Positions 24,589 through 56,984 of a stretch of 64,000 nt of DNA are shown here, in pieces (positions within the stretch are counted from its first letter, which is position 1; every line of letters starts with the position of its first letter). This stretch comes from Eledone cirrhosa (Eukaryota). The notes under the pieces were generated by a model, which was not told the origin of the DNA, searched no databases, and saw only the letters and a list, made by a program, of their open reading frames with translations. Location of the stretch: contig OZ024740.1 of the NCBI GenBank assembly GCA_964016885.1, forward strand, positions 346,580,001 through 346,644,000, in the 5' to 3' direction. A program made the translations under genes and the position numbers.

Positions 24589-24654
24589 AGAAGAAGAAGA
24601 AGAAGAAGAAGAAGAAGAAGAAGAAGAAGAAGAAATAATAATAATAATAATAAT
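24589..24654. repeat. (GAA)n-(AAT)n compound microsatellite, left border of retrotransposon stack 1
   Basis: Read directly from the sequence. Confidence 0.95.
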
Positions 24655-24905
24655 GCTTTCTTTATTAACCACAAGGGTTTACATAAAGTAGACATTAAGC
24701 AGAGTACAGGACAATACAGGACGGTACTAATGGGCATTTCTGCGTGTAAAAAAACAAAAACAGAGGATGTAACAAAAACATAACAAGGAAAATTCCCCAA
24801 TAGGGGAGAGACTTCCGAGGGACGTTTGTGGAGAAAGCCCATTAAAAGGCCACAGTGACCCTGACCACCAGGTCAAGTGCCTTCTCCCAGTTTTCAACCT
24901 TTAAT

Positions 24906-27900
24906 TTACAGACACATACTCAGAGTAGGCCCATTCACTCGGGCCATACTTGCTTCTCTCACCCATCTTTCAACAAAATGCTGCGGGAAGAGAGCATTTC
25001 CCTCTCTACCCTGATTTTCCTTTTCAAATGAAATTTGAAAGAGTTAATCAGGGCATCACCGATGAGGTAAGTGATCGTCTTCAGCCCTTTCAAACGTATC
25101 CACCATACTATCTCTTTCGCCATGGCCACCAGACATATGAAAACTGCCTGCCCTTCCCGGCTAAAGGAGGAGGGCGGGGCAATCCTCAAGATGGATTCAG
25201 CTGATAGCTGGATACGTCCTACAGTTGACAGCAGGTTTTCGACATGAACCCACAAGTCAGCTATGCTCGGACACTGAACGAGTGCGTGCAGGACGGTTTC
25301 ATCGCCCTGCGCGCATCTAGGACATGCCCGGCTGACGGCACCTCCATGCCTGTAGAGTTTATCCCGACTGCCAAAGCTCCTCAGTAGCACTGCCAGGCCA
25401 GGGATATCTGGAAGTTGTCCATAGGCCCCGGCCCGAAATTTCTTCCGAAGAGATTGGCTAGTTGATTTTCGTCGACGCCTAGACTTTCTCCAAGTACGTC
25501 GTCGCTCTTCCCCTCCACTAATCCTCTATAGAACGCCAAGGTGGAGTTTCCAACGATCACATTGCCCGATTGGTCGAGCGCTGTGAGCACCTGAAGACAT
25601 TCCAGTCTCCAAGCGCTCCCTCCTGGTCTTAGCTTGACACATGACTGCAGCTCCGTCAAGGAGACGAGCTGGGGAAAGACGCGTCTAGCAAACGGCGACC
25701 ACACCTGATCACCGTCGAGGAAGAGGTGGAGATGTCGTAGCCTGAGCGCGTGTCTGCGCATCATCAGCCACGGCATGCCCAGCCCCCCGCGTAGCGGGTG
25801 TTGACAGCAGATGGACCGTCTGACCATCGGAGCGCGTTCCTTCCCCAAAAAGCGAAAGAGCAAACGCTCCAGCGCATTCACGCGGGGCTTAGGACAAGCC
25901 ACGACGGTCAGGCGGTAGCAGATGACGGACGCGATGTACGCGTTAGCCACCTCCGCTCGAGCTTTCAGGTATAGCTTCCTCTCCGCAATTTCTGAGTGAG
26001 AGAAGTCGGCCTGCTCGTCACCTCGTTCCTGTTTTTGTACGTCTGGAGGTTCTGACCGAACAAGACCCTAGCAATTTAACCGGTCCGTTGGGGGAGGGGG
26101 GATTAGACCTGCCTCTCCAGATGCCGAGCTGCAGGCCCACTGACCTGGTTGATCATTGCTCCTGTCACCGCTTCGTATTCTCTTAGTGTAGTGCCCATCG
26201 CCTGGATGTGTTTGGCGTTCGAAACCACTACGGTGGCATCGTCCGCATATGCTGACACAGATATTGCGCATCCTAGTTCGCGCAGGATGCCATTCAACGT
26301 CTCCTGTTTATGCAGTAATGGCTCGAGAGTCAATACGTACAAGAGTGACTGGAGGGGACATCCTTGGTGGACCGAGCGCATGATATTGAACGGTTCCGAA
26401 AAGTGACCGTTCACTCTCACCACAGAGCAGATGTCGCTGTGCATGGCAGCGATCCAGCCTCTGAAAACGTGTCCAAAGCCAGCCGCCCTCAGGACTGCCA
26501 CTAGGTAACGATGGTCGACCCTATCGAAAGCTTTCGACTGATCTAAATTGATCAAGGACCCACCCATGCCAGTTTCCCTAGCTACCCTCTCTACGATGTA
26601 TCGCATGAGGTGGAGGTTGTCGTGGATGGATCTGTCGGGAATGGAGCATGTCTGTGCCTCTCCCACCAGACCACCAACGACAAGCGCCAACCTCTTTGCT
26701 AGCACCTTGGCCAAAATCTTGAACTCTGTGTTTAGCAGAGTTATGGGCCTAAAATTATCTATGTTATCCCCCTTGTTCGGATCCTTTCTCAGCAGCGCCA
26801 CGGCTCCTCCGCTCACAGAGCTGGGAATTATTCCGTTCTGTTGCCAGTTGCAGTAGACGTCCGCCAAGAGGCCTCCGAACAAGTTTGGCATATGTACGTA
26901 AAGTTCATAGGGCAGACCATCCGGACCAAGCGATTTACCCTTTGTGCTGCCTGTCATTGCCTCCCATACTTCAGCGGCTGTTATCGGCTTTTCGCAACAC
27001 TCCGCCTCATTGGCCAAGAGCCACGGCAGTCCGGCGAGGTAGACACTAAAGCCCGCCACTGCCCCCGAACAGCTGAGCGATGTGTCGCTGAAAAGCTTCG
27101 CACATTTGCCCGGGATCGAATAGCATGCGCCCGTAGTGGTCCACCAAATACCAGATCGTGACTTTGTTACAATGACGCGCCTCCGCCACTCGGGCCCATT
27201 GAACCGCTTTCGCCCCCTCGTGTCTGAGAGCACGCACCCTAGCTCTGACAACGCAGCCTTCGTGCTTTGCATTGAAGGATTGGTCAAGGGCCAATTGCGC
27301 CGCAAGTACGTCGGTCGCGATGCCTTTGCTTAGCGCCTCGTCTAATTTTCTAACTAGTTCTCCCTCTGCTCTATTTTTCTCTATTGCTAAAGCCTTACTA
27401 AACATAATGGACTCTATTCTAATCGCTCTTTCAGAGCAAACCACCAATTGTTGTTGATGATGGCCGCCGTCAACGCCCGCTTAACTAGTTCGCTAATCCC
27501 GTCTATGTAGGCCTTGCGCGCTGGTAAGGACGCTTTTAACTTCCAGTAGCCGGGTCCTCGTCTATGAAGCCTATCTAAGTCAAGCACACAGATCACGAAT
27601 TTGTGGACCGTGTAGCTGACTATCTTGAATTGTGGTCAGCTTATGCTAGACCTATCTATTTCCCTACAAAATACTCTATCTAGATATGATCTGGATGAAC
27701 CTATCCGATTTGTGCAAGTCCACATTGGCACATTCGAGAAATCCAATCCGTACCTGTCAGGCAGTTTAAAACGCCTGAGCAGGTTGGTGAGGCTCGTGCA
27801 CCCTCCTCCCCTATCCGTTAATCCCACACAGTCCCAGCGTGCATCTTAGATTCCGTTCCAGTCGCACACTAACACTAAAGAGCGGGACGTTCCAAGAAAG

Positions 27901-28329
27901 GTCTCCAGACGCCGGAAGTATCAGGCCACCCTGCTGCTGTTGGGGCATAGACGGCCACCCTGCTGCTGTTGGGGCATAGACGGCCACCCTGCTGCTGTTG
28001 GGGCATAGACGGCCACTAGCCTGTAAGCTTGCCTGTCTACGCTGATCACGTCCAGCACGACCAATTTACCTTCTGGGTCCAGGAAGATGGCCCGTATCGC
28101 GAGATCCAAACCTCTCCGAAAAAGCACAGCAACTCCACCCCCCGATCCAGGACGGCTGGGAGATGCGTACACATCGTAGCCGCGCAAGATCGGTGCGATG
28201 GCCCGTGCTTCGGAGATCCTGGTCTCGCTGATGGCCACTACATCTATGTTTAGTGACCAGAGGTCGTTGAGCAGGTGGCCCTGCTTCCATGACGACCCGA
28301 AGCCACGCGCCGATTCTGAGTAAGGTCAT
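24906..28329 (-). pseudogene. Tx1-A1 ORF2 (APE-RT), multiple frameshifts
   Basis: ORF pieces are collinear with the 788-aa ORF of copy A2. Confidence 0.9.
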
Positions 28330-28364
28330 GTTGAAATGGAGCGGAAAAGATGGGAAAGACGACT

Positions 28365-30317
28365 TACCTTACTTCTCGTAGAGGAAGGACGGTTTCTCCA
28401 TCCTTGTCACTGCTTGTGGCCTGCTCCGGAAGGATGTCCTTATAAATCCTCCTGGAGAGTGTTTGCCGGAAGGCTCCGGAAGTCTTTGGGGAATTTTTGT
28501 TTCAGTGTCGTGTACGTTTTCTGTGTGATGCGCGTGATTTGTATGTGTGGGGGTGGTGTGAACTTTTGGGTTGTTGTGTAGTCTTTTTCTTTGATGCTGG
28601 TGTTGTGTTGGATGTAGTGTAATAATTGGTTGTTTTTCAAATTTAATGCTGTGAAGTGTGTATCGTTTTGGTTGTTTTGTTTTGTTTGCGTTTGTGGTGG
28701 GATTGTTTCTGTTGCGCTTTTTGGTGACTTTTGTGGTGTTGGTGATGGTGGTGTTGGGGTTAATGATGGTGATGGGGTTGGTGTTTGTGGTGATGGGGTT
28801 GGTGATGCTGGTGTGGATGGTGGCATATCTGTCTTAACTTTCTTGTTCGATAATTTATTTGTTTTCCTCTGTATTTTGTTCTTTGAAGGGGAAGGAAGAG
28901 AATTTTTTTTTTTGGTTTCTTTTTTTTCTTCTTTTTTCCTGATACCGTTTCCCACTCCTCGTCGTCACAATCTGTCTCCAGTTGCGATAAGCCGCGGAGT
29001 GGAAAATCCTCCACAGGGGTTGGTTTTGGTTGTGGCGTGGTGGATGGTGTAGGCGCTGGCGCTAGTTCTGGGGCGTTGGGTGGTGGTGGTGTTGGTTTTG
29101 CTACTGTTGCTGGGGTTGTTGCTGTTACAGTTGCTTCTGTTGTTGCTGCTACAGTTGTTGCTGCTATTTCTGCTGCTGGTGGTGTTGATGGTTAAGTCAC
29201 TGGAGTGGGTAAGAGAGGTGGCCTCAACCTTTCAGCATGAGAGCAGAAAGCCCTTAGGTGGGATCCTTCAGCACAAACGACACACCTAGGTCTTCTGCTC
29301 TCGACGATTACGGTGAGGTGGCTGCCGTCAGTGAGGTCTATTACCACTGGGATCTCCTCAATGCTTTTATGGTCCGCTTGGATCAGGAGCTCCATCCCAG
29401 ATCCGGACAAGTTCTCCTGCTTTTCTTTTGCTATTTCTATTATTTTGGTGTTGGCCTCGATGCCGGCGAGGAAGGCGGCCATTAGCCAGGATTGTCGATG
29501 GCCGGTGGAACGTGGGTCACCCTGATCTTCACAGGTCTCTGGCCACAATAGCTTGGGATGAGTGTGAAGTCGTCACTTCTTAATGGGGGCATGGAGTGTT
29601 CTCTGGCCTCCTGTGCTGTTTCAAAGAACACGTCCACGGTTCCATACTTCTGCTCACGTCTGATATGGATTTTTTTTGCCCACACATGACCCAAAGATTT
29701 TTGGATTTGGGACTCAGATGCCCGTTCCACTCGGCGCGATTTTATGTTTATTGTCCGATAAGACACGGTGCATAGGAGACGTTGCTTCATTTTATTAGGT
29801 GGGGGTTTGAGGCTGAACCTGTACCCATCTTTCTTTATCATTCCTTTGGCTTCGTCTAATTCTTCCTGAGTTACCTGGATCGCTTCGCACGTTTTTGCTA
29901 CACTGGCAAAACTCAGGGTAGTTTTCTTAATTTCATTGTTGCTGTTGTTATTATCGTTATTTTTCCTATTGTTAATTTTAGTTTCAGTTGTGGTGGTGGT
30001 GGTGGCGTCAGTGGTGTTCGGTGTGGAAGAGTTCATTTTGGTTGAATTCATTTCGATACCATGAGTTAATTTATTTTTTCTTTTGTTTCTGTTGTCGCTG
30101 TGGTGGTGGTGGTGTGGGGGGGGGGGGTTGTCGCGGTGGTGGCGGCTTTAACACCTGCAGTAATTGGTAATGACGGGAAATGAACGTCTGCCTGAGTCAA
30201 ACTTAAAATATTGCTACTGCTTACAATTCCAGTGTTGGCAAACGTAGCAATATTTACAATGGTGGTGTCGGTGTGAGGTGTTGGATTGTGAGGAAGGAGT
30301 GAATCTGAGTCATCCAT
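28365..30317 (-). pseudogene. Tx1-A1 ORF1 (gag-like, CCHC), frameshifted
   Basis: ORF pieces 30066-30317, 29482-30051, 29192-29548 and 28440-28955. Confidence 0.8.
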
Positions 30318-30535
30318 TATTTTTCAAAGAAAAACATTTTTGATTGATAATTATAAAAATTTTAATTTTGGGCTCAAGGCCCCAATATTTTTGAGTATCC
30401 TTTTCAGAAATCAATGTATGTGCACTCATATACTGTTAACAATAAAAAAAATTTCCATAAATGCGAATTTTAAATAACTGAAAATAACAAACCTTTGCGG
30501 AGCTCACGATGATACGATTTACTACGTAGGTCGCC

Positions 30536-30592
<57 letters not shown>

Positions 30593-30594
<2 letters not shown>

Positions 30595-33500
30595 TTTCTT
30601 TATTGGCCACAAGGGCTGACATCAAGAAAAACATCACAGACGGAACAGGACGGTACGATGTGGGTTTTGTGCGTGTAAATATTTTTATTATTTATATAAG
30701 AAAAGAAAAAAGACATAAAACATATATATATATAAACAATAAAATGAAAATTGAAACAATGAAAAATTCCCCAATATGGGGAAACCTCCGATGGTTACTC
30801 GTGGCGAAAACCACACAAAAGACCACGGGCATCCTGACTACCAGGGCAAGTGCCCTCTCTCAATTTTTCCATCTCTCAAACTATAGACGTATATTCAGAG
30901 TGGTCCCGTTCACTCGGACCATTCTCGCTATATTCACCCACCTTTCAACAACCTTGCTAGAAGGCAGCACTTGCCTCTCCACCCTGATTTTCCTCTGCAA
31001 GTGAAAAATGAAAAAGTTAATCAGGAATTTGCCGAAAAGGAAAGTGTTTGTCTTTAATCCTTTTAACCTTGTCCACTACACAATCTGTTTCGCCATGGCC
31101 ACCAGGCAGATGAAAACCGCCTGCCCTTCCTCCCCAAAGGAAGACTGCGAGACCATCTGCACAATGGACTCAGTCGACAACCGGATCAGTCCCACACGTG
31201 ACAGCAACTGTTCGACATAGCTCCACTAGTAAGCAATGCTCGGGCACCGAACGAGTGCGTGCACAACGGTTTCGTCGCTATGCGCGCATCTCGGACAGGC
31301 TCGGCTGACGGCACTTCCGTGCCTGTAGAGCTTATCTCGAACCGGCAGCGCCCCCCGGTAAGACTGCCAGGCCAGGGATTTTTGGAAGTTATCCATACGC
31401 CCTGGGCTGAAAGTTCTCCGGAAGAGAGCAAGCAGCTGATCTTCTTCGACGCCCAGGATCTCTCCGAGAACGTCGTCGCTCTTCCCCTCCACTAGTCCTC
31501 TATAGAACACCGAGGTGGATGTTCCACCGATATTGGTGCCAAACTGGGAGAGGGCAGTGAGCGCCTGGAGACATTCCAGTTTCCAAGCGCTATCCCTCGG
31601 TCTTTTTCTGAACCATGGCCGCAGTTCCGTCTAGGAGACGAGCTGTGGGAATATATGCCTGGCGAACAGCGACCACACCCGTTCACCATCAAGGAAGCAC
31701 GAGAGATGTCGAAGCCTCAGCGCATCTTTGCGCATCATTAGCCATGGCATGCCCATTCCTCCACGCAACGGGTGTTGACAGAAGATGGATCGTCTGACCA
31801 TGGGAGCGCGCCCCTTCCACAAAAAGCGGAAGAGGAGGCGCTCCATTTTGGTGAGAGTTGGGCTGGAGCAAGGGACGACGGTGAGGCGGTAGCAGATGAC
31901 GGATGCGATGTACGCATTCGCCACTTCCGCCCGGCCTTTCAGGGACAGCTTCCTCTCAGCCCATTTCTGGGTGAGGGAGGCCACCCTGCTCGTCACCTCG
32001 TTCCAGTTTTTCTCCATCTGGAGGTCCGGTCCGAACCAGACCCCGAGCAATTTAACCGGTCCGTCCGTCCAACGCCCCACGACATTGTCGGACGGCATGG
32101 ACTTGCCTCTTCAGGTGCCTAGCTGCAAGCCCACCGAGTTTTCCTGGTTCATCTTTGCTCCTGTCACCGCTTCGTATTCCTTGAGAGCGGTGCCGAGCAT
32201 CTGGACGTGTTTAGTGCTCGACACCACCACGGTTACGTCGTCAGCGTAAGCCGACTCGGATTTCCCGCATCCTAGTTCGCGTGGGACGCCCCTCATTGCC
32301 GCCAGTGTGTGCAGTAACGGCTCGAGAGCCAATACGTACAAGAGGGACGAGAGGGGTCAACCCTGGCGGACTGAGCGCATGATGCTGAACGGCTGCGACA
32401 GGTGACCGTTCACCCTCACAACTGAGCAGATGTCGCTGTACATTGCTACGATCCAACGCCTGAAAACAGGCCCGAAACCGGCTGCCTCGAGGATTGTCGC
32501 CAGGTACCGATGGTCAACCCTATCGAATGCTTTGGATTGATCCAAGTTGCTCAGGGCGCCACCCTTGCCAGGTTCCTTAACCACCCTTTCTATCATGTAT
32601 CGCATGAGGTGGAGGTTGTCGCGTATGAATCTGTCCGGGATGGCGCTTATCTGCGCCTCTCCCACCAGACCCTTGTTGACAAGCCCCAACATCGTTGCTA
32701 ACACCTTGGCCACAATCTTGAACTCTGCGTCTAGCAGAGTTATGGGCCTGAAAGTATCAATAACATCCCCCTTGTTCGGGTCTTTTCTCAGCAGCGCCAC
32801 TGCTCCCCGGCTCACAAAAATGGGTATGCTCCCGTTCTGCTGCCAGTTGCAGTAGACATCTGCCAAGAGGTCACCGAACAAGTCTGGCATAAATGCATAA
32901 AGCTCGTAATACAGACCATCTAAACCTGACGATTTACCTCTTGTGCAGTTAGCCATCGCTTCCCGTATTTCACCGGCTGTTATTGGCTTTTCGCAACACT
33001 GCGCTGCGGTCGTCGACAGCCGAGGCAGTCCGTAGAGTTATAACTGAAGTCCATGCCCCGATCCGGGCCGCCGCCGCTCCCGAACAGTTCAGCAATGTGT
33101 TGCTGAAAAGCTTCACACATCCGCTCGATTTCGAGCATCACGCACTCATTTTGGGCAGGCAAAGACCGAATTGTGGCTTTATTGTCACGTCGCGCCTATG
33201 CCACCCGGGCCCATTGGACGGCTTTTGTCCCCTTGTGTTTCAGAGCACGCTCTCTTGCTCTGAAAACGCAGCCTTCATGTTTTGCGTTTAAGAATTGGTC
33301 GCCGCAAGCACGTCGGTTGCAATGCTTGTCCTAAATGCCTCTTCTAGCTTTCTGACTAGCTCTCCCTCTACTCTATTTTCCTCCATCACTACTCCTTTGC
33401 TAAACCTAATCGACTCTACTTTAATTGCCCTTTTCAGGGCGAAACACCACCTGTTGTTGACGACCGCTCCCATCAACGCCCGCTTAACTAATACGTTAAT

Positions 33501-36448
33501 CCGGTCTCTGTAGGACATGCCCTCCGGGAAAGACGCGTTCAGCTTCCAGTAACCAGGCCCTTGTCTATGAAGTCTGTCTATGTCGATCTCACAGATCACA
33601 AATTTGTGGTCTGTGTAGTCGACTATTTTAAATTGTGGACAACTTATACTAGCCTTATCTAGTTCCCTGCAGAATACTCTATCTAGATACGATGTGGATG
33701 ACCCGATAAGGTTTGTCCATGTCCACATTGGCACATTCGGGTGATCCAGTCGATACCTGTCAGACAGTTCAAAACGGCTGAGCAGGTTGGTGTGGCTCAT
33801 GCACCCTCCTCCCCTATCCACTAGCGCCACACGATCCCATTGTGCATCCAAGATACCGTTCCAGTCGCCCACTAACAATAAAGAGCGGGACGTTCCAAGA
33901 AAGGTCTCTAGACGTCTGAAGAAATCTGGCCGTCCTGCCCCTGTTGGGGCGTAGACGGCTACTAGCCTGAAAGCATTGCCTTCTCTGTCGGTCACGTCCA
34001 GCACCACCGACTTACCTTCTGGCCCGTATCGCGAGATCCAAGCCTCTCCGAAAAAGGACGGCAACCCCTCCCCCCGATCCAGGACGGCTGGGAGATGCGT
34101 ATACATCGTAGCCGCCGAAGATCGGTGCGAAGGCCCGTGCCTCGGAGATTCTTTTTTCACTGATGGCCACCACATCTATGTTTAGTGACCTGAGGTCATT
34201 GAGCAGGTGACCCAGCATCCAAGATGACCCCAGGCCACGTGCATTTATACTGCCTATTCTTAGTACAGCCATGTTGGATGAGAAACGGGGTAAATGAGAA
34301 AGGGTCACTTACCTTGTTCGTGTGGTGAAGGGACAGTAGAACCGTCCCTTTCGCTGGTCATGGGTGTTTCCAAGAGGATGTCAGTGTATATCCTTTTGGT
34401 AACCGTCCCTCTGAAGTCTCCAACTGCGTTGGGGAATTTTTGTTTTAAAGGTTTGTATTGTTCTATTGAGATTTTGATGATGCTAATGTTTGTCGGGAGA
34501 GTTCTTGGTGTTGGTGGGGTGTAGTAGTTTTTTTCCGTGATGTCTGTATGCTGCTGTATATATTTTATGAGTTCTTTTTTGCTATGTTTATGGCCATGTA
34601 CTTTTTTGTGGGAGGGGTGATTTTGTTGCCGTTTTCTTCTTGTTGCTGTTTGGTGTGTGTGTCTTGTTGTGTTTGCGTTGTTGGTGTTTGTGGTGGTGTT
34701 GCTGCAAGTTTCCTTGCTGCCTTTACCCCTCTTTGTATGCCTTCGCTTTTGGAGGGTGATTCTAAGGGTTTTTCCTTTTTTCTTTTTTGTGGCAGACTGT
34801 TTGCCACGTCACTCCCGCCTCAAACCCCATGTCGGATTCTGTGGCGTCTGGGAGGGGTATGTGCTCCACGGCTGTTGGTGGTGGTAGTGGAGCCATCTTC
34901 GGCAATGTTGTTGCTGGTGTAGCTATTTCAAATGTAGCTATTGGTGTTGCCGCTACTGATGATGCTGCTTTAGTTATCCGTGGCTTTGGTACGGGTGCTA
35001 CGGACGTTGCCCTAATACTCACCGTGGAAGGGGCTTCTTCGTTTGTTGCCTGTTCTGCTCTTGGTAGCAGCGGACCAGGTATTAGAAGGAGAGGGGCCCT
35101 CTTCGGTGTCTTCTGCGGGCAAAAGGCCCTGAGGGGACCTTTCGACCCACAGAGATAACATTTTGGCCGTCTTCCTTCTACACTTACAGGGAGTTGGAGT
35201 CCTTCCTCAAAGTCTATGATATCGGGGATAGCCTCGATACATTCCTGGTCAGTTTGTATAAGCATTTGCATGCCTATACCTGAACAGTTCTCACTCCCTA
35301 TTTTTTCTACTTGCAGCATGGTTGCCCTGTTCTCAATTCCAGCAAGGACAGACGCGGCCAGCCAAGGTATGGGCACGTCGGATGGGACCTGGGTCACTGT
35401 GACCCTCACAATTTTCTGCCCGCAATAGGAGGGCACCAAGACTAACTCCTCACTCTTTAGGGTTTCCAAAGAGTGAGACCTTGCTTCCTGGGGGGTGGCG
35501 AAATGTACGTCTACTGCGGCGTAATTTCTACCTCGGATGATGTGGGTTTTGCGTGCCCAGACGCACCCCAAGGCCTTTGGGATTTGAGCCTCCGTGGCTC
35601 TCTCCACTCGATGTGAGATTTTGCTTACGGTGCGGTAAGTCACCGTCCGTAGCTGCTGGTCCTTGAAAAATCGGGTGGAGGTTTTAGGGAAACTCTATTT
35701 GCGCTTCTTGTCACCATGGCCCTTGCGACTGCCATCTCCACCTCTGTGACTAACACTGTCTCGATATATCGGGCCACACCTGCAAAAGAAGTGGTTCTTT
35801 TTTCAGCAGCACCACTATTGCTGCCGCTACTGGTCTTACTGGTGGTGCTGAGGTCGCTATTACAGGTATCGGTGTCATTGTTGTTCTTTTCGCTGGTACA
35901 GTTGTTGGTGTTGTTTTCGTTGATACTCTTGCTGCTGTTACTGTTATTGTGGTTGTTGTTATTATTGTTGTTTTTGTTGATACTGTTCCTACTATTATTG
36001 TTGTTGTGGCTGTTGTTATTGTCATTGTTATTGTCGTTCTCGACCTTACCGCTGTTATTTTTGTTATTGTCGTTCTCCACTTTACCGCTGTTAATTGTGG
36101 TGTTGTTGTTGGTGATGTTGTTGGTGTTATTGTTGGTGTTGTTTGTGTTAGAAATATTTGGTAATTTTAAATCTGTAACAATCTTTTTTTCCTTTGTAAT
36201 ATTTTCGTTTATATTTACCTCCGCTGGAACGCTGTCTTGTTGACATGCTGATAAAGTCTCCCTCTCTCTGTGTTTTCTGACCCGTAAAGGGGTGCCGTAT
36301 TATTTACTAGTGAACCCCTGTATTAGGTCTATCACTTCTTCTAAACTTTTATCAAATTTAAAACTTGAATAAAAGGTTTAGAACGGTTGAAAAAGAGGTA
36401 AAACGTTGAAAAAGACTGGAGGAGATAAGAAGCGTGGCTTCACAAACC
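30593..36448 (-). mobile_element. Full-length Tx1/L1-clade element, family B copy 1 (decayed)
   Basis: ORF1 has an Asn-rich N-terminus and CYLCGSKGPLRAFC. ORF2 survives as APE/RT fragments. The 5' UTR differs from family A, and (AAT)n flanks both sides. Confidence 0.95.
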
Positions 36449-36805: not shown

Positions 36806-39172
36806 TTAAACAAAATGCTGGGAAGAGAGCACTTCCCTCTCTACCCTGATTTTCCTTTTCAAATGAAATTTGAAAAAGTTAATCAGGGCATCACCGAAGA
36901 GGTAAGTGCTCGTCTTCAGCCCTTTCAAACGTGTCCACCATACTATCTCTTTCGCCATGGCCACCAGACAGATAAAAACTGCCTGCCCTTCCAGGCTAAA
37001 GGAAGGAGGCGGGGCAATCCTCACGATGGACTCAGCTGATAGCTGGATAGGTCCTACACGTGACAGCAGGTGTTCGACATAAACCCACAAGTCAGCAATG
37101 CTCGGACACTGGACGAGCGCGTGCAGGACGGTTTCGTCGCCCTGCGCGCATCTCGGACATGCCCGGCTGACGGCACCTCCATGCCTGTAGTGTTTATCCC
37201 GAACTGGCAAAGCTCCTTGGTAGCACTGCCAGGCCAGGGATTTCTGGAAGTTGTCCATAGGCCCCGGCCCGAAAGTCCTTCCGAAGAGATTGGCTAGTTG
37301 ATTTTCGTCGACGCCTAGAGTTTCTCCAAGTACGTCGTCGCTCTTCCCCTCCACTAATCCCCTATAGAACGCCAAGGTGGAGTTTCCACCGATCACATTG
37401 CCCGATTGGTCGAGGGCTGTGAGCACCTGAAGACATTCCAGTCTCCAAGCGCTCCCTCTCGGTCTTCGCTTGACCCAGGACTGCAGCTCCGTCAAGGAGA
37501 CGAGCTGGGGGAAAACGTGTCTTGCAAACGGCGACCACACCTGATCACCGTCGAGGAAGAGGTGGAGATGTCGTAGCCTGAGCGCGTGTCTGCGCATCAT
37601 CAGCCACGGCATGCCCAGCCCTCCACGTAGCGGGTGTTGACAGCAGATGGACCGCCTGACCATCGGAGCCCGTCCCTTCCACAAGAAGCGAAAGAGCAAA
37701 CGCTCCAACGCAGTCAGGCGGGGCTTAGGACAAGGTACGACGGTCAGGCGGTAGTAGATGACGGATGCGATGTACGCATTCGCCACCTCTGCTCGACCTT
37801 TCAGGGATAGCTTCCTCTCGGCCCATTTCTGGGTGAGAGAAGCCACCCTGCTCGTCACCTCGTCCCAGTTTTTGTCCGTCTGGAGGTCTGGACCGAACCA
37901 GACCCCTAGCAATTTAACCGGTCCGTCCGTCCAGCGCCCGACGACGCTGTTGGACGGCATGGACCTGCCTCTCCAGGTGCCGAGCTGCAGGCCCACTGAC
38001 TTTTCCTGGTTGATCATTGCTCCTGTCACCGCTTCGTATTCTCTTAGTGTAGTGCCCATCGCCTCGATGTGTTTGGCGTTCGACACCACTACGGTGACAT
38101 CGTCGGCATATGCTGACACGGATCTTCCGCATCCTAGTTCGCGCGGGACCCCCCTCAACGTCTCCAGTTTGTGCAGTAATGGCTCGAGAGTCAATACGTA
38201 CAATAGGGACGAGAGGGTACATCCTTGGCGGACCGAGCGCATGATGTTGAACGGTTCAGAAAGGTGACCGTTCACTCTCACTACAGAGCAGATGTCGCTG
38301 TGCATGGCAGCGATCCAGCCTCTGAAGACGGGCCCAAAGCCAGCCGCCCTCAGGACTGCCGCTAGGTAACGATGGTCGACCCTATCGAAGGCTTTCGACT
38401 GATCTAAATTGATCAAAGACCCACCCGTGCCAGGTTCCCTTGCTACCCTCTCTACGATGTATCGCATGAAGTGGAGGTTGTCGTGGATGGATCTGTCGGG
38501 AATGGCGCATGTCTGTGCCTCTCCCACCAGACCACCAACGACAAGCGCCAACCTCCTTGCTAGCACCTTGGCCAAAATCTTGAACTCTGTGTTTAGCAGA
38601 GTTATGGGCCTAAACTTATCTATGTTATCCCCCTTGTTCGGATCCTTTCTCAGCAGCGCCACCGCTCCTCGGCTCACAGAGCTGGGAATTCTCCCGTTCT
38701 GTTGCCAGTTGCAGTAGACGTCCGCCAAGAGGCCTCCGAACAAGTTTGGTATTTGTACGTAAAGTTCATAGGGCAGACCATCCAAACCAAGCGATTTACC
38801 CCTTGTGCAACTAGTCATTGCATCCCGTACTTCAGCGGTTGTTATCGGCTTTTCGCAACACTCCGCCTCAGTGGCCGAAAGCCGCGGCAGTCCGTCGAGG
38901 TAGACACTAAAGTCCATCCCTCGATCCGGCCCGCCACTGCCCCCGAACAGTTGAGCGAAGTGTCGCTGAAAAGCTTCACACATTTGCCCGGGATCGAGTA
39001 GCATGCGCCCGTCGTGGTCCACCAAAGACCGGATCGTGGCTTTGTTGCCACGACGCGCCTCCGCCACTCGGGCCCATTGAACGGCTTTCGTCCCCTCGTG
39101 TCTGAGAGCACGCACCCTAGCTCTGACAACGCAGCCTTCGTGCTTTGCATTGAAGAATTGGTCAAGGGCCAA
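36806..39172 (-). CDS. Tx1-A2 ORF2, RT plus C-terminal zinc-finger portion (APE part split off by frameshifts; true start ~40153)
   Basis: 788 aa with RPITLLN, DQSKAFDRVDH, RQGC.LS, YADD and CPRC..ETVLHALVQC. Confidence 0.9.
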   Translation of the reverse strand: MALDQFFNAKHEGCVVRARVRALRHEGTKAVQWARVAEARRGNKATIRSLVDHDGRMLLDPGQMCEAFQRHFAQLFGGSGGPDRGMDFSVYLDGLPRLSATEAECCEKPITTAEVRDAMTSCTRGKSLGLDGLPYELYVQIPNLFGGLLADVYCNWQQNGRIPSSVSRGAVALLRKDPNKGDNIDKFRPITLLNTEFKILAKVLARRLALVVGGLVGEAQTCAIPDRSIHDNLHFMRYIVERVAREPGTGGSLINLDQSKAFDRVDHRYLAAVLRAAGFGPVFRGWIAAMHSDICSVVRVNGHLSEPFNIMRSVRQGCTLSSLLYVLTLEPLLHKLETLRGVPRELGCGRSVSAYADDVTVVVSNAKHIEAMGTTLREYEAVTGAMINQEKSVGLQLGTWRGRSMPSNSVVGRWTDGPVKLLGVWFGPDLQTDKNWDEVTSRVASLTQKWAERKLSLKGRAEVANAYIASVIYYRLTVVPCPKPRLTALERLLFRFLWKGRAPMVRRSICCQHPLRGGLGMPWLMMRRHALRLRHLHLFLDGDQVWSPFARHVFPQLVSLTELQSWVKRRPRGSAWRLECLQVLTALDQSGNVIGGNSTLAFYRGLVEGKSDDVLGETLGVDENQLANLFGRTFGPGPMDNFQKSLAWQCYQGALPVRDKHYRHGGAVSRACPRCAQGDETVLHALVQCPSIADLWVYVEHLLSRVGPIQLSAESIVRIAPPPSFSLEGQAVFICLVAMAKEIVWWTRLKGLKTSTYLFGDALINFFKFHLKRKIRVEREVLSSQHFV

Positions 39173-40673
39173 TTTCGCCGCAAGTACGTCGGTCGCGATG
39201 CCTTTGCTAAGCGCCTCATCTAATTTTTTAACTAATTATCCCTCTGCTCTATTTGTCTCTATTGCTAAAGTCTTACTAAACCTAATGGACTCTATTCTAA
39301 TTGCTCTTTTCAGAGCAAACCACCACTTGTTGTTGACGATGACCCCCGTCAACGCCCGCTTAACTAGTTCGCTAATCCGGTCTCTCTCTGTAGGCCTTGC
39401 GCGCTGGTAAGGACGCGTTTAGCTTCCAGTTGCCGGGTCCTCGTCTATGAAGCCTATCTAAGTCAAGCACAAAGATCACGAATTTGTGGTCCGTGTAGCT
39501 GACTATCTTGAATTGTGGACAGCCTATGCTAGACCTATCTATTTCCCTACAAAATACTCTATCTAGATATGATCTGGATGACCCGATGCGATTTGTCCAA
39601 GTCCACATTGGTACATTCGGGAAATCCATTCGGTACCTGTCAGACAGTTCAAAACGTCTGAGCAGGTTGGTGAGACTCTTGCACCCTCCTTCCCTATCCA
39701 CTAATTCCACACAATCCCAGCGTGCATCTAAGATCCTGTTCCAGTCGCCCACTAACACTAAAGAGCGGGACGTTCCAAGAAAGGGCTCCAGACGCCGGAA
39801 GAAATCAGGCCGCCCTGCTCCTGTCGGGGCATAGACGGCCACTAACCTGAAAGCTTGCCCGTCTCCGCTGGTCACGTCCAGCACCACCAACTTACCTTCT
39901 GGGTCCAGGAAGATGGCCCGTATGGCAAGATCCAAACCTCTCCGAAAAAGCACAGCAACTCCTCCCCCGATCCCGGACGGCTGGGAGATGCGTACACATC
40001 GTAGCCGCCGAAGATCGGTGCGAAAGCCTGTGCTTCGGAGATTCTGGTCTCGCTGGTGGCCACTACATCTATGTTTAGTGACCTGAGGTGGCCCTGCTTC
40101 CATGACGACCCCAAGCCACGCACATTTATGCTGCCTATTCTGAGTGAGGTCATGTTGAAAAGGAGTAGAAAAGATGGGAAAGACCACTTACCTTACTTGT
40201 CGTAGGGGAAGGACGGTTTTTCCATCCTTTTCACTGCTTGTGGCCTCCTCAGGAAGGATGTCCTTATAAATCCTCCTGGAGAGTGCTTGTCGGAAGTCTC
40301 CGATGTCTTTGGGGAATTTTTGTTTTAGTGTCATGTACGTTTTCTGTGTGATGCGAGTGATTTGTATGTGTGGAGGTGGTGTGAAATTTTGGAGTTGTTG
40401 TGTAGTCTTTTTCTGTGATGCTGGTGTTGTGTTGGATGTAGTGTAATAATTGCTTGTTGTTCAAATTTAATGCTGTGTAGTGTGTATCGTTTTGGTTGTT
40501 TTGTTTTGTTTGCGTTTGTTGTGGGTTTGTTTCTGTTTCGCATATTGGTGACTTTTGTGGTGTAGGTGATGGTGGTGTTGGGGTTAATGATGGTGATGGT
40601 GTTAGTGTTTGGGTTGATGGGGTTGGTGATGCTGGTGTGGATGGTGGCATATCTGTCCTAACTTTTTTGTTTC

Positions 40674-41636
40674 TTAGTTTATTTGTTTCCCTCTGTATTT
40701 TGTTTTTGGAGGGGGAAGGAAGAGAATTTTTTCTTTTTTGGTTTCTTTTTTTTTTCCGGATATCGTTTCCCACTCCTCGTCGTCACAATCTGTCTCCAGT
40801 TGTGATAGGCCGGGGAGTGGAAAATCCTCCACAGGCGTTAGTTTTGGTTGTGGCGTGGTGGATGGTGTAGGCGCTGGTGCTAGTTCTGAAGCGATGGGTG
40901 GTGGTGGTGTTGGTTTTGCTGGTGGTGGTGGTGGTGTTGGTTTTGCTACTGTTGCTGGGGTTGTTGCTGTTATAGTTGCTTCTGTTGTTGCTGCTACAGT
41001 TGTTGCTGCCATCTCAGCTACTGGTGGTGTTGATGGTTGTGTCACTGGGGTGGGTAGGAGAGGTGGCCTCAACCTTTTAGCCTGAGGGCAGAAAGCTCTT
41101 AGGTGGGTTCCTTCACCACAAACGACACACCTAGGTCTTCTGCCCTCGACAATTACCGTGAGGTGGCTGCCGTCAGTGAGGTCTATTACCTCTGGGATCT
41201 CCTCAATGCTTTTTTGGTCCGCTTGGATCAGGAGCTCCATCCCAGATCCGGACCAGTTCTCCTGCTTTTCTTTTGCTATTGCTATTATTTTTGTGTTGGC
41301 TTCGATGCCGGCGAGGACGGCCGCTATTAGCCAGGGAATTTCGATGGCCGTTAGAACGTGGGTCACCCTGATCTTTACGAGTCTCTGGCCACAATAGCTT
41401 GGGACGAGTGTGAAGTCGTCACTTCTTAATGGGGCCATGGAGTGTTCTCTAGCCTCCTCTGGTGTTTCAAAGAACACGTCCACGGTTCCATACTTTTGCC
41501 CACGTCTGATGTGGGTTTTTCTTGCCCACACATGTCCCAAAGCTTTTTGGATTTGGGACTCGGATGCCCGTTCCACTCGGCGCGATTTTACATTTATTGT
41601 TCGATACGACACGGAGCATAGGCTCCGATGCTCCAT
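40674..41636 (-). CDS. Tx1-A2 ORF1 core (CCHC zinc knuckle, Pro/Thr-rich), frameshifted at both ends
   Basis: 320 aa with a CX2CX4HX4C motif. Confidence 0.8.
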   Translation of the reverse strand: MEHRSLCSVSYRTINVKSRRVERASESQIQKALGHVWARKTHIRRGQKYGTVDVFFETPEEAREHSMAPLRSDDFTLVPSYCGQRLVKIRVTHVLTAIEIPWLIAAVLAGIEANTKIIAIAKEKQENWSGSGMELLIQADQKSIEEIPEVIDLTDGSHLTVIVEGRRPRCVVCGEGTHLRAFCPQAKRLRPPLLPTPVTQPSTPPVAEMAATTVAATTEATITATTPATVAKPTPPPPPAKPTPPPPIASELAPAPTPSTTPQPKLTPVEDFPLPGLSQLETDCDDEEWETISGKKKETKKEKILFLPPPKTKYRGKQIN

Positions 41637-42385
41637 TTTATTAGGTGGGGGGTGAGGCTGACCCTGTACCCATCTTTCTTTACCATTTGTTTGGCATATT
41701 CTAAATCCTCCTGAGTTACCGTAAATGCTTCGAATAGTTTTGCTACTCTGGCGAAACTGAGGGTGGTTTTTATAATGTTGTTGTTGTTGCTATCGTTATT
41801 TGTGTTAATATTAATTTTAGTTTCAGTTGTGGTGGTGGTGATGTCAGTCGTCTTTGGTGGGGAAGAGTCCATTTTGCTTGATTTCATTTCGACATCACGA
41901 GTTAATTTATTTTTTCTTCTTTTGTTTCTGTTGTCGCGGTGGTGGTGGGGTGCTGGTTGTCGCGGTGGTGGTGGTGGTGGAGGCTTTAACACCTGCAGTC
42001 ATTGGTAATGGCGGGAAATGAATGTATGCCTGAGACAAATTTAAAATATTGCTACTGCTTATACTTTTTGTAGTGTTGGCAAACGTAGTTACATTTACAA
42101 TGGTGGTGTCGGTGTGAGGTGTTATAATTTGTGAGGAAGGCTTTCAGCTGCTTGGTGCAGAGGTGAATTAGTCATTTTTTTCTCAAAGAAATTTTTTGAT
42201 AATAATAAAAGTTTAAATTTTGGGCACAAGGCCCCAATCATTTTGGGTGTCTTTTTCGGAAAACAATGTATGTGCGCTTATATATGGTTAACAATAAACA
42301 TTTTCCATAAATGGCAATTTTTAACAAACGGAAATAACAAACCTTTGCGGAGCTCACGATGATACGATTTACTACGTAGGTCGCC

Positions 42386-42433
<48 letters not shown>

Positions 42434-42436
<3 letters not shown>

Positions 42437-43530
42437 GATAGGAAGACTAGGAAGCTATTGACTATCTACAACATGTTCCACAAGAGGAGTGATGTCGATA
42501 GACTCTACCTAAGGAGATCTGAGGGTGGAAGAGGTCTTATCAGCATAGAGGACTGTGTTCAGATGGAGAAAAACAACCTATACAAATACGTGACCTATAG
42601 TAAGGAGCCAATGCTCAGAGCTGTACTGAAGGAGGGGACAGTAGGCCAGGGGATACCCAAGGAGGAAATAACATCAAGGAGGAAGAGCAGCCTTAAGGGA
42701 AAATCCCTTCATAGTACCTTCTTTGAGAAAACTGAATTTAGAGATCCACAGACATGGAACTGGTTGAGAAGAGGAGACCTCAAAAGGGCTACAGAAGGAA
42801 TGCTAATGGCTGCGCAGGAGCAGGCCCTCAAAACGAAGTGGTTGAAGCACCATATCTACAAGGAGGAGGCTAGCCCACTGTGCAGGATCTGTGGAGAGAG
42901 AGAGGAGACTGTGGCTCACATTGTGTCCGAGTGTAAACACCTAGTCCAGACCCACTATAAGGGCTGGAGACACGATGTGATGGGCAGGGTGATCCACTGG
43001 CACCTGTGCAAAGTAAACAATCTACCACATTCTGAGAAATGGTATGAGCATAGGCCAGAGGCGGTGATGGAGAACAGTCAGGTGAAGGTGCTGTGGGATT
43101 TTAGGATACAGACGGACAAAAAACTGGAACACAATAGACCTGACCTGGTGGTTGTGGACAAAGAAAAAAGATCGTGCCTGATTGTGGATGTGGCCTGCCC
43201 GTTCGACACGAGAGTGCAAGAGAAGGAGAGGGAGAAAATTAACCGATACCAGGACCTAAATTGGGAGGTGAAAAGGATTTGGAACTGCCATGAAGTCAAA
43301 GTGATCCCGATTGTCATAGGCGCACTGGGGACTATCTCCAAAGGTTTCCAGGGATGGTTAAAGAAAATCGGCCCCTTCACGCTTTTTGGAACGCTTCAAA
43401 AGGCATGCTTGCTTGGAACGGCAAGAACCCTCCGATACGTCCTGAATATCTGAGGCTGCAGGTAGTGGCTTGATATTCAATCCAACGGACTTTCCAGTTA
43501 ACCAACATCAATGACTGAGATTCAAGGAAT
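42434..43530 (+). mobile_element. 5'-truncated R4/Dong-type RLE retrotransposon (family 1)
   Basis: The 339-aa ORF is nearly identical to 47023-48042. It has CCHC, RHD and RPD..D..K nuclease motifs and is flanked by (AAT)n. Confidence 0.95.
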
Positions 43531-43539
43531 AACAATAAC

Positions 43540-43592
<53 letters not shown>

Positions 43593-44650
43593 GGGAAGAA
43601 GACGCACGAGGTGACGGAGGTCATGAAATCGCTCCCGTAAGTTTTGAATTTTTAACATATTTAAATTATTTGTGAAATAACAACTCTTAGTACAAATGCT
43701 ACGTAAAGCACCCGGCTTGAGCCCCAAAAAATTCGGACCCAAAATATATTGTTATAAGGCTCAAATATTCAAATATTCAACTTTGTATTGTACACTGTAT
43801 ATCCAAAAAAAAAAATGGCTATAAATGGAAGAAGAAGAACCCCCCCCCCCCTCCTCTCCTCTGGCTACACTATATAGGACAGCTAAACTCACCAACACCA
43901 GAAACTAGATACACCGCCCACCCCATCATCTGTGTACACTAAACACAACAGCATTTTCACCTTCACCGCCACCGCTCACTACGGCCATCATTACCACCAC
44001 TATCCCATCACCGCCGCCACCACCCCCTGACTCCTTCACTGCTGCTGCCACCGCTACAGCACCAGCACTACAGTAATACGGTCGCATCACCGCCACCACT
44101 GCCTCGGTATCGACATCACCGCCACCACTGTCTCAGTATCGCCAACGCCGCTAGTCTCTGCTGGCTACCACTTCCACATTATAGAATTCCTACTACTAAC
44201 AAAGAGGAAGGCATCAAAATATATAGATAGACTCAAAAGAAAAAAGAAAAAACAAACAACAAAAGCAGCACAGCAACAACAGTAAAAAACGAGAAAAACA
44301 GAGAAAAACAAAAACAAAAAAAGAAACCCCCAAAACGTAAAGAAAATAAGAATGAAGAGAGAAGCAGGCGGACGGACAGAGAAGAGGGGGGAAAAACTAA
44401 AACTTAAAAAACAAAAACTAAGTCAGACATTCGAATACTACATTACAATGAAACTTATGCTTATTCATTTTTGGGGCCCTTTCTGCCCGTGTGTTTGTTT
44501 GTTTATGTGTGTCCGTATACAGCGTGGTGATAATGCCACACAAGGGCCAAGTGGGATGGCGGATCCACAGATGGCTATGTAAACATACATTCGCCAATCC
44601 TCGATAAGAGTGTTTAAATATCGAACATAAACAGTTCGAATAACGGTGAA

Positions 44651-45976
44651 ATGGAGACTAGAACGTCATGTGACAGACTCTCACCCAACAGGTGCCCCCT
44701 GGCTCAGCAGCAGGAACCTGACTGTCAACGAAATACTGCTGATGTTGGAGGAAGAAGAAGAAGGAAAGGGGCCAGAACCAACTGGACGAACGAATTGAAT
44801 AGAACTGTTATGCAATGCTACCTGAAAAGTAACCCCAAGGAGAGGGGCTACAGGAGACGGATGCATAACATCTGGAACGAGATTGGTTTATTTAAATTAG
44901 ATGAACAAAAATTGGCCGGGCAGGCTCGGGTAATAAGAACTAATGGGTGGATAAGCGAGCTGGAACTGGAGGAACTGAGCAGAGAGAATGGCTTGGAGAT
45001 GGCGGGTGTAGTATGCCAGACAAGCGAGCCGGCGGGAAATGAAGGTGAGGAGGTCCTGAGAGCGGAGGAACCACCCGAAGCAGACAATGATCTGAATACT
45101 GAGATAAATAATACCTGGAACAGAGATACGGCCACTGAGGAGATGAATGCTGACGGGCTAGGACAAGATTCGGTTGACATCCTAAATTTAGTGGTAGATG
45201 AGTTGAACAATGATAGTGGGAGACCTATGAACCTAAGATTTGTAGACAGGAAAAAGTTAAAAGAAACAACAGCTAAGGTAAACAAAGTCATCCCATACCT
45301 TGAGGCGAGGAGTCTTCACCAGTGCAACAATATCCTCAAAGCAACAGCAAATACGGTGAGGAAACTACTTGGTATAAAAGCGAGAGGAAACAACAGACAA
45401 GAAAGAGCAGAGCCGTGGTGGAAGAAGCGACTGAGTGGGCAAATCGGGGAAATGAGAAATGACATAGGAAAGCTTGAGTCACTACTGAATGGGACACTAA
45501 AAAACATAGGCACTAAAAATAGACTGGAAATAAAATACAAAACTAGGAGTAAAAAGCTAAATATTATCATAGAGGAATTGAAGCAACACATTGTAGCAAA
45601 GAATGCCAAAATCAGGCGATACGAGAACAGAGTCAGTCAGTATAAACAGAACCGCATGTTCGACAACAACCAGAAGATGCTGTTTGGACAGCTTGAGGGG
45701 AAAGAAAGAGGCACCGACTTGATCCCTGGGGCGGAACAAGCTAAAACATTCTGGAGAGGAATATGGGAGCAGGATGTTAGACACAATGCCCAGGCAGGGT
45801 GGATTGAGACAGTACAGAGGGAGATCGCTGAGCAGGCACAGCAACAGACTGATTTGAGTATCACAGTTGAAACTCTTAAGGGGCAAGCCAAAAAACTAAC
45901 CAACTGGAAATCACCAGGCCCAGATGGTGTGCAGGGGTATTGGATTAAACATTTAACATCCCTCCACCCAAGCTGA
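44651..45976 (+). CDS. Dong/R4 ORF, N-terminal part (Myb-like DNA-binding region to RT start)
   Basis: [48 protein letters not shown]. Confidence 0.88.
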
Positions 45977-45981
45977 CGGCC

Positions 45982-48042
45982 ATGTTCAATGACTGCTTGG
46001 TGTCGGGTGAGGTGCCAGAGTGGTTGACAAAAGGTACCACAGTTCTGATAATGAAAGACCGAATCAAGGGTAATGATGTTACCAACTATAGACCTATCAC
46101 ATGTCTGCCCGTAATGTGGAAACTGTTGACGAGCATTGTGTCTGAGGAAATCTACCATCACCTCCACACAAACAACTTGTTGGCGGACGAACAGAAAGGA
46201 TGCCGAAAGAAGTCACGTGGTACAAAGGACCAGTTGCTTATTGATAAGATGGTAATGGGGAATTGCAGGAGGAGACACACTGATCTTGCCATGGGATGGA
46301 TAGACTACAGAAAGGCATTTGACATGGTGCCTCATTCCTGGATCACCAAAAGCCTGGAGATCTTCAGGGTGGCAGATAACATCAGACAGTTGCTGGGCAG
46401 GAGTATGGGGTCCTGGGAGACAGAGTTGACATCAACTGGAGTATCCTTGGGAAGCGTGAAGATCAAGAGAGGTATCTTCCAGGGAGATAGCCTGTCCCCT
46501 CTGTTGTTTGTCCTTGCCCTGATGCCCTTGACCATTATGCTGCGAAAAGTGAGAGCAGGATACAAGTTGGGAAGGGGAGAGCTTACCATCAATCACCTCC
46601 TCTTCATGGACGATCTTAAGCTCTTCGGGAAAAGTGAGAAGGAGTTGGATGTGCTTGTTGACACTGTCCGTATTTTCAGCAGTGATATATGTATGCAGTT
46701 TGGTATTGGTAAATGTGGAGTCATTGTGATGAGGAGGGGTAGGTTGAGCAGAAGTAACGGGATCCAGATACCAACAGGTGAGATGATAAAGGAAATTGAC
46801 TCTGAGGAAGGATACAAGTATTTGGGCGTTCTGGAGGCTGATGGCATAAAGAACAAAAAAATGAAGGAATTGTTAAGAACTGAATACATTCGGAGAGTAA
46901 GGAGCGTATTGAAGTCACATCTGAACAGCAGAAATGCCATAAGCGCAGTAAATTCCCGAGCTGTGTCTATTATTAGGTACAGTGCGGGAATTCTGAGATG
47001 GAATGTTGCTGAACAAAAAGAAATGGATAGGAAGACTAGGAAGCTATTGACTATCTACAACATGTTCCACAAGAGGAGTGATGTCGATAGACTCTACCTA
47101 AGGAGATCTGAGGGTGGAAGAGGTCTTATCAGCATAGAGGACTGTGTTCAGATGGAGAAAAACAACCTATACAAATACGTGACCTATAGTAAGGAGCCAA
47201 TGCTCAGAGCTGTACTGAAGGATGGGACAGTAGGCCAGGGGATACCCAAGGAGGAAATAACATCAAGGAGGAAGAGCAGCCTTAAGGGAAAATCCCTTCA
47301 TAGTACCTTCTTTGAGAAAACTGAATTTAGAGATCCACAGACATGGAACTGGTTGAGAAGAGGAGACCTCAAAAAGGCTACAGAAGGAATGCTAATGGCT
47401 GCGCAGGAGCAGGCCCTCAAAACGAAGTGGTTGAAGCACCATATCTACAAGGAGGAGGCTAGCCCACTGTGCAGGATCTGTGGAGAGAGAGAGGAGACTG
47501 TGGCTCACATTGTGTCCGAGTGTAAACACCTAGCCCAGACCCACTATAAGGGCTGGAGACACGATGTGATGGGCAGGGTGATCCACTGGCACCTGTGCAA
47601 AGTAAACAATCTACCACATTCTGAGAAATGGTATGAGCATAGGCCAGAGGCGGTGATGGAGAACAGTCAGGTGAAGGTGCTGTGGGATTTTAGGATACAG
47701 ACGGACAAAAAACTGGAACACAATAGACCTGACCTGGTGGTTGTGGACAAAGAAAAAAGATCGTGCCTGATTGTGGATGTGGCCTGCCCGTTCGACACGA
47801 GAGTGCAAGAGAAGGAGAGGGAGAAAATTAACCGATACCAGGACCTAAAGTGGGAGGTGAAAAGGATTTGGAACTGCCATGAAGTCAAAGTGATCCCGAT
47901 TGTCATAGGCGCACTGGGGACTATCTCCAAAGGTTTCCAGGGATGGTTAAAGAAAATCGGCCCCTTCACGCTTTTTGGAACGCTTCAAAAGGCATGCTTG
48001 CTTGGAACGGCAAGAACCCTCCGATACGTCCTGAATATCTGA
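45982..48042 (+). CDS. Dong/R4 ORF, RT plus CCHC plus restriction-like endonuclease
   Basis: 686 aa with [25 protein letters not shown] and [24 protein letters not shown]. Confidence 0.93.
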
Positions 48043-48120
48043 GGCTGCAGGTAGTGGCTTGATATTCAATCCAACGGACTTTCCAGTTAACCAACATCAA
48101 TGACTGAGATTCAAGGAATA

Positions 48121-48122
48121 AC

Positions 48123-48191
<69 letters not shown>

Positions 48192-48197
48192 AAGAAG
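48121..48197. repeat. (AAT)n-(GAA)n compound microsatellite, right border of stack 1
   Basis: Read directly from the sequence. Confidence 0.95.
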
Positions 48198-56845: not shown

Positions 56846-56923
56846 GATTTCTTTATTGACCAGAAGGGCTGACATCAAGAAAAACATTACAGACGGCACA
56901 GGATGGTACAGAACGGTACGAGG
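56846..56923 (-). mobile_element. 78-bp 3'-terminal stub of a Tx1 element (family B-like) in (AAT)n
   Basis: GATTTCTTTATTGACCAGAAGGGCTGACATCAAGAAAAAC.. matches 30593 and 58025, with (AAT)n on both sides. Confidence 0.85.

Positions 56924-56984
<61 letters not shown>

Follow-up and report, generated by a model that had tools for sequence, protein, structure and literature searches.

Background

The long interspersed elements (LINEs) TRAS and SART both belong to the R1 clade and carry an endonuclease of the apurinic/apyrimidinic (APE) type. According to the accessible text of the sources cited here and below, they reside in opposite orientations in the (TTAGG)n telomeric repeats of the silkworm (PMC7265360). 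Dong elements of the R4 clade (Dong from Bombyx mori, DongAg and the snail element DongBg) target TAA repeats, and Kibi and Koshi target (TC)n and (TTC)n, respectively (PMC3812793), as crocodilian Tx1 families target (TTCC/TTTC)n (PMC4494074). Keno, an APE-type member of the Tx1 clade, and Utopia, which possesses a restriction-like endonuclease (RLE), evolved the same target in the U2 small nuclear RNA (snRNA) gene in parallel (PMC4640811). Here we describe a stretch of the Eledone cirrhosa genome in which Tx1-like (APE-type) and Dong-like (RLE-type) elements, so labelled from their architecture rather than from a tree, are stacked within an (AAT)n microsatellite. We find that this tract is a real target and not a mere tail, and that the two types of elements partition it by strand, the APE-type elements reading ATT and the RLE-type elements reading AAT.

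Organization of the stack

The window, i.e. the whole analysed stretch of 64,000 nt, comprises the forward-strand positions 346580001-346644000 of contig OZ024740.1 (C1) in a 3.0-Gb assembly. The stack extends over positions 24,590-48,196 of the window:

24590..24634, plus strand: (GAA)15, left border, with a GAA-to-AAT junction (the rare order)
24634..24654, plus strand: (AAT)7 tract on the 3' tail side of A1
24655..30535, minus strand: A1, Tx1-like family A, full length (5,881 nt), decayed
30536..30592, plus strand: (AAT)19 tract, from the A1 5' end to the B1 3' end
30593..36448, minus strand: B1, Tx1-like family B, full length (5,856 nt), decayed
36449..36499, plus strand: (AAT)~17 tract, interrupted
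36500..42386, minus strand: A2, Tx1-like family A (5,887 nt)
42388..42435, plus strand: (AAT)16 tract, head to head between the 5' ends of A2 and the Dong stub
42436..43539, plus strand: Dong-like stub, 5'-truncated (1.1 kb)
43540..43590, plus strand: (AAT)17 tract, from the stub to the full Dong
43591..48122, plus strand: Dong-like RLE element, full length (4,532 nt)
48123..48196, plus strand: (AAT)13 followed by (GAA)11, right border, with an AAT-to-AAG junction (the common order)

These coordinates agree with the order A(-)/B(-)/A(-)/Dong stub(+)/Dong(+) given in the initial annotation, with (AAT)7-19 tracts between the elements, and the elements are indeed uninterrupted by one another, A1 and A2 being alignable end to end. 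The borders, described there as mirrored, are so in that (GAA)15 and (GAA)11 flank the stack, but the two junction types are very unequal in frequency genome-wide (61 versus 1,503, see below). All four long copies contain frame breaks or stops, and the fifth, the stub, is 5'-truncated. Since the tract at 42388-42435 separates the 5' ends of two elements, it is the 3' tail of neither neighbour. Because A1 and A2 are 92.5% identical end to end, families A and B about 80%, and the stub and the full Dong 99.6% over 1,098 nt, the stack is not the product of one tandem duplication.

The five insertions initially proposed correspond to five copies, but perhaps to only four events, if a single template jump of the reverse transcriptase (RT), or a local tandem duplication, gave rise to both the stub and the full Dong. 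The 99.6% identity and the head-to-tail order of this pair speak for such an origin, as do the 10 of 29 sampled Dong 5' ends that lie behind another Dong-type copy running in the same direction, and the identically truncated tandem copies at locus L226. We nonetheless find it doubtful: the pair differs at four positions in 1,098 nt, and A1, B1 and A2 (80-92.5%), as well as the head-to-head tract, would be left unexplained.

The (AAT)n tract as a target

Flanks were counted in exact-motif searches with the matches taken in positional order (the first 100 or the first 30). The motif for the Dong-type 5' end is common to a sister family, and the Dong-type flanks were read by eye, at least three units within 25 nt serving as the criterion. 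(ATT)n adjoins every one of the family A 5' ends listed (100 of 1,662 exact 21-mer matches) and likewise every one of those listed for family B (100 of 197; two of the tracts are interrupted), and (AAT)n adjoins 89 of the 100 listed Dong-type 5' ends (of 1,126), with six of the remaining 11 having (AAG)n beside the element. In the samples of highest identity, the 5' tract is present in 29/29 A, 29/29 B and 27/29 Dong copies, against a background of 0.4% (ATT) and 0.1% (AAT) of positions that count as tract-flanked in the parts of the window not taken up by stacks (32.9 kb). At the other end, the repeat follows the element immediately, without poly(A), in all cases sampled (60/60 Tx1-like and 30/30 Dong). 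The initial annotation had asked whether most copies might have 5' flanks other than (AAT)n, and for families A and B the answer is negative. Tx1 families have been regarded as microsatellite-specific when more than 20% of their flanks fall in one repeat type (PMC4494074); here, the proportion is 100 of 100 listed ends in both families, and 11/21 (A) and 4/12 (B) among truncated copies. By their flank counts, the Dong-type elements share the TAA-repeat insertion of the Dong/R4 clade.

Truncated copies, being unable to carry a 5' leader, bear on the question of the target. The Dong 3' end has 4,094 exact matches genome-wide; the first 30 include 13 copies truncated within 1.5 kb, and 11 of these have (AAT)n directly upstream; of the other two, one has a tract beyond a short duplication and one is without a tract. 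In a set of 349 loci of retrieved copies, which is biased toward stacks, a 5' tract accompanies 53 of 62 truncated Dongs. The truncated Tx1-like copies weigh against the tract as their strict target: in the same set it is present in 11 of 21 A copies (11 of 18 without three non-truncations) and in 4 of 12 B copies (4 of 8 without four full-length copies split by indels), and in the 3'-end samples in 5 of 8. The resulting rate of about 55-60% is well under the 100% of full-length copies, a shortfall that could be due in part to any of three causes: deletions after insertion, relaxed insertion or a 5' leader.

A short interspersed element (SINE) of about 187 nt, of which 56 copies were examined (locus L126 and 55 others), resembles the Tx1-like ends in its last 25 nt, and may be mobilised by the Tx1-like enzyme. 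At 18 of 38 non-repeat sites it is flanked by duplications of 13-21 nt, and 17 of these 18 begin with ATTA, which would be the nick signature of the Tx1-like enzyme if that enzyme moves the SINE. ARAGORN detected no tRNA in the SINE, the centre of which we take to resemble the Meta domain; Rfam gave no match in locus L126, in the window, or in the metagenome contig L236 described below.

It could be argued that the Tx1-like endonuclease merely prefers ATTA-like steps, that the specificity lies mainly in the pairing of an (AUU)n tail, and that a 5' (AUU)n read-through leader inflates the figure of 100%. The low rate of tracts at truncated Tx1-like copies would fit, and so would the SINE, of whose 56 copies only 9 are enclosed by the tract, ATTA sites being used otherwise. 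Likewise, 97 of the 100 listed family A 5' ends join the tract in exact register, an AATAAA lies a few bases ahead of the Tx1-like tail, so that RNA cleavage would fall within the repeat, and RNA-DNA pairing has been proposed for SART1/R1 (PMC7265360). However, this explanation predicts that unique sequence should be duplicated outside the tracts, and none was seen when 28 full-length A/B loci were inspected by eye, while the partnership of the SINE with the Tx1-like enzyme is itself only presumed. On balance, we regard it as unlikely.

Strand polarity and stacking across the genome

To what extent the arrangement in the window is general can be judged from 176 sampled element ends, for which a member of one of the five window families lying no more than 130 nt away was taken as a neighbour. 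Such a neighbour is present at 95 of them, although some junctions may have been counted from both sides. Cross-class neighbours are in opposite orientation in 54 of 54 cases and same-class neighbours in the same orientation in 39 of 41, i.e. the partition is kept in 93 of 95. This strict strand partition between APE-type and RLE-type elements is a new observation. The flank and polarity counts agree with the earlier proposal that the two lineages share one (AAT)n niche; the stack is, on the other hand, nothing unique, as stacking turns out to be ordinary. A sorted order, with all Tx1-like elements on the left and all Dong elements on the right, is ruled out as a rule, as 16 of 30 A 3' ends lie tail to tail with Dong. 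On C1, 22 of the first 30 tracts with the pattern S(AAT)8 (19,301 genome-wide) adjoin a window family, a figure that counts for less than it seems, as the pattern favours such junctions and several of the tracts come from one stack.

The flank and neighbour counts already largely refute the view that the repeat is nothing but a 3' tail, as well as an explanation of the stack by misassembly or by the passive accumulation of random insertions. Head-to-tail tracts alone could not distinguish a tail from a target, but elements often meet head to head with a tract between them (a Dong-type element stands opposite 11 of 29 A 5' ends), truncated Dongs keep the tract, and the two classes have a fixed polarity. 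The elements of the stack have diverged and are not duplicates of one another, and both outer flanks of the stack are single copy in the genome. We thus deem such an origin extremely improbable.

The window contains the beginning of another stack:

56804..64000, mixed strands: second stack, with (AAT)n tracts between the elements, running at least 20 kb beyond the window
56846-56925, minus strand: 3' stub of family B
56983-57997, plus strand: X, a second Dong-type family
58025-63303, minus strand: B2
from 63376, minus strand: family C

This second stack (which includes L181-L182) is longer than the first and holds additional Tx1-like families; within it, the tract itself flips, as (AAT)4(ATT)8, and the next element flips along with it. 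Recurring 5' ends at loci L106, L124, L162, L095, L131 and L205 point to at least two more ATT-flanked families outside the main stack.

Proposed mechanism of insertion

Target-primed reverse transcription is the established route of insertion for such elements. We consider it likely that the Tx1-like and Dong-like elements enter (AAT)n, reading it in opposite directions, by nicking opposite strands of the repeat, and that repeat-bearing RNA ends pair with the nicked strand. Tx1-like priming would take place on the AAT strand and Dong priming on the ATT strand, where the paired RNA end would prime copying; tail pairing of this kind has been proposed for SART1/R1 (PMC7265360). A second nick some 13-21 nt away would duplicate a part of the tract, the RNA tail would add units and slippage would lengthen the tracts, whereby one target would become two and the site would keep collecting elements. 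What is directly seen is the tract on both sides of the copies, the fixed polarity, the repeat in place of poly(A) at the sampled 3' junctions, the stacking, and neighbours of mixed age. These observations agree with the earlier claim that insertion leaves target on both sides, and the stacks probably pile up because every new copy is left with fresh repeat at either end for the next one.

Two loci illustrate the presumed duplication: a B copy at locus L235 has the same interrupted 19-nt tract at both sides, and 28 nt are duplicated around a truncated A copy at locus L099. At the other paired loci an interruption at the 5' junction is not repeated at the 3' junction, which fits later mutation but lends the scheme no support. 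In the present stack, serial insertion into a GAA/AAT/GAA tract would have placed the oldest elements on the left (A1, B1) and the youngest on the right (A2, stub, Dong). Identity to the nearest retrieved copy, which rises from left to right (A1 93.9%, B1 94.9%, A2 99.0%, stub 99.7%, Dong 99.9%), fits this order, with the reservation that the copies were retrieved with A2, B1 and Dong queries and never with A1, so that the ranking is biased.

GAA borders and the empty site

Genome-wide, the junction (AAG)5-(AAT)5 occurs 61 times and (AAT)5-(AAG)5 1,503 times (28 versus 1,454 in register). Of the 61 rare-order junctions, 40 were examined, not including the window's own. No element is present in 17 of them, which are plain GAA/AAT/GAA sandwiches; the tract gives way to a Tx1-like 3' end in 6 and to a Dong 5' end in 7; and another 4 represent mirrored stacks that are filled and close within 8.3 kb. 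The empty site had been postulated to be a single (GAA)n(AAT)n(GAA)n tract; the 17/40 element-free and 4/40 filled analogues support this postulate by analogy rather than by observation of the site itself, and on these grounds we regard a GAA/AAT/GAA precursor of this stack as well supported. No paralogous empty site exists, since both flanks of the stack are single copy. In four public runs compared with positions 47,700-49,700, no empty allele came to light, as contigs end at the repeat and restriction-site-associated DNA (RAD) runs do not reach the flank; the runs X1 and X2 represent one sample, possibly the assembly's own. The out-of-register left junction was considered as an insertion scar and rejected as not diagnostic, being present in 5 of the 17 element-free sandwiches. 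Of the first 30 common-order junctions, 13 lie behind a Dong-type 3' end and 8 ahead of a Dong-type 5' end, which suggests that the bias in order stems from Dong tails laid into GAA tracts or from slippage at Dong 5' junctions. Sloppy junctions, with partial repeats of the first bases of the element and (AAG)k runs, occur at Dong 5' ends, and in several copies a 330-nt stretch of the 5' region is duplicated internally.

Architecture and relatives of the elements

A separate first open reading frame (ORF1) with a gag-like CCHC knuckle is a feature of the Tx1 clade. The minus-strand elements match the Pfam families Exo_endo_phos (APE), RVT_1 (RT) and zf-RVT, with APE at the N-terminus and the zinc finger at the C-terminus of ORF2. 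In A2 the parts are:

40674-41789, minus strand: ORF1 piece with the CCHC knuckle
39372-40187, minus strand: APE
36806-39235, minus strand: RT/zf-RVT

The knuckle in the A2 ORF1 frame has the form C-x2-C-x4-H-x4-C, and its counterpart in B1 has a proline at the position of the His. A2 is damaged by one frame change and two stops, and A1, measured against an unbroken relative, by 12 stops and one frame change. B1 is about 80% identical to family A and differs from it in the 5' region. All nine PDB matches of the APE domain are forms of the L1 endonuclease, and the top cluster in an Atlas search is L1-ORF2-like. The only species-named protein matches are to Argonauta hians (69% and 59%); one further match is labelled as a bacterial metagenome-assembled genome, and no named Tx1-clade reference was among the protein-search matches to these elements. 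The Tx1 label has indirect support in O. vulgaris, where L1-Tx1 is the sole L1-group class among the recently active LINEs (PMC13282606, Table 1). A search for a conserved 3' stem-loop revealed no strong fold (z from -1.6 to 0).

The coding region of the full Dong is split near 45949-45976 into frames of 452 and 697 amino acids; RT is followed by a C-terminal CCHC and a PD..D endonuclease region. Its best PDB matches are R2 proteins, with a weak second aligned stretch that covers the PD..D region, and for its relatives of about 1,140 amino acids no APE family is listed. No named Dong or R4 sequence appeared among the search matches to the plus-strand element, and a DNA search with its 3' end yielded no match, probably on account of overly common sequence words.

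In metagenomes, a first scan yielded no relatives and a second one 73 distant loci (21-49% identity in the best segments), none of which has an ATT/AAT run of at least five units; they are too distant for inference of lineage. One metagenome contig (L236:1-130) holds a distant two-ORF APE element, and the sequence ahead of it, without an Rfam match at the gathering score, presumably resembles the start of U1 snRNA.

Elsewhere in the window, an older Tx1-like fragment (17435-18370, plus strand, about 71% identical to A2) lies between (TA)n-type tracts and not in (ATT)n. Two long inverted repeats, at 14412-16715 (about 960 nt, 91%) and at 53737-54127 (a 391-nt palindrome, 99%), are probably non-autonomous DNA elements.

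Comparison with known systems

A TAA-targeting Dong, microsatellite-targeting Tx1 elements and the sharing of a target between APE and RLE lineages have each been published already, and ATT-targeting APE families and dispersed self-renewing stacks appear to be undescribed. The niche sharing, initially thought to be without description, is therefore new only in part: no ATT-targeting Tx1 family was found in the mostly open-access literature (with Repbase, Dfam and Fig. 3 and the supplements of PMC4494074 outside this scope), but Keno and Utopia provide a precedent for sharing between APE and RLE. The accessible text of the octopus annotations counts Dong-R4 and L1-Tx1 elements, the Dong-R4 families of Octopus vulgaris being abundant, with recent activity (PMC13282606), and gives no targets (PMC13282606, PMC8967140, PMC9115989); the words "target" and "nested" are absent from the main text of PMC13282606, and "Tx1" from the accessible text of PMC4824008.

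It is tempting to go further and propose that ATT-specific Tx1-like LINEs (A, B, C and more), together with Dong-like ones, form a hitherto undescribed radiation in which one dispersed microsatellite is split by strand, and that in this 3-Gb genome they make and occupy most of the long (AAT)n tracts, in self-renewing stacks of tens of kb. An abundant Tx1-tailed SINE would ride along and report the ATTA nick, and Dong tails in GAA tracts would explain the 25- to 50-fold bias in junction order. For this scenario as a whole, we see the chances as evenly balanced.

Microsatellite targeting has been called not well understood (PMC3812793). (ATT)n appears to be a new target for APE-type site-specific LINEs, and thousands of junctions offer a natural comparison of two enzymes and two strands on one trinucleotide repeat, in which the contributions of the endonuclease and of RNA pairing become directly testable. 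The stacks also represent a candidate mechanism for the hotspots of transposable elements in octopus-type genomes, for which the accessible text of the annotation gives no cause (PMC13282606), and they are a warning that AAT microsatellite markers in such genomes are mostly transposon-flanked.

Among the described systems, the Dong elements resemble the plus-strand elements studied here as RLE-type LINEs in TAA repeats; unlike them, the latter occur in thousands of copies, share their tracts with APE families and sometimes adjoin (AAG)n. Kibi, Koshi and the crocodilian Tx1 families are, like families A and B, of the APE type and target microsatellites; here, in contrast, (ATT)n serves as the target, an invertebrate as the host, and an RLE family occupies the tract as well. 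TRAS and SART provide the parallel of two families that occupy one simple repeat in opposite orientations, but they are confined to telomeres, whereas the present elements represent two endonuclease classes and their targets are dispersed genome-wide. Finally, Keno and Utopia likewise bring APE and RLE lineages together on one target; theirs is a functional multicopy gene site, whereas the target in E. cirrhosa is a microsatellite that is dispersed and persists on either side of every insertion.

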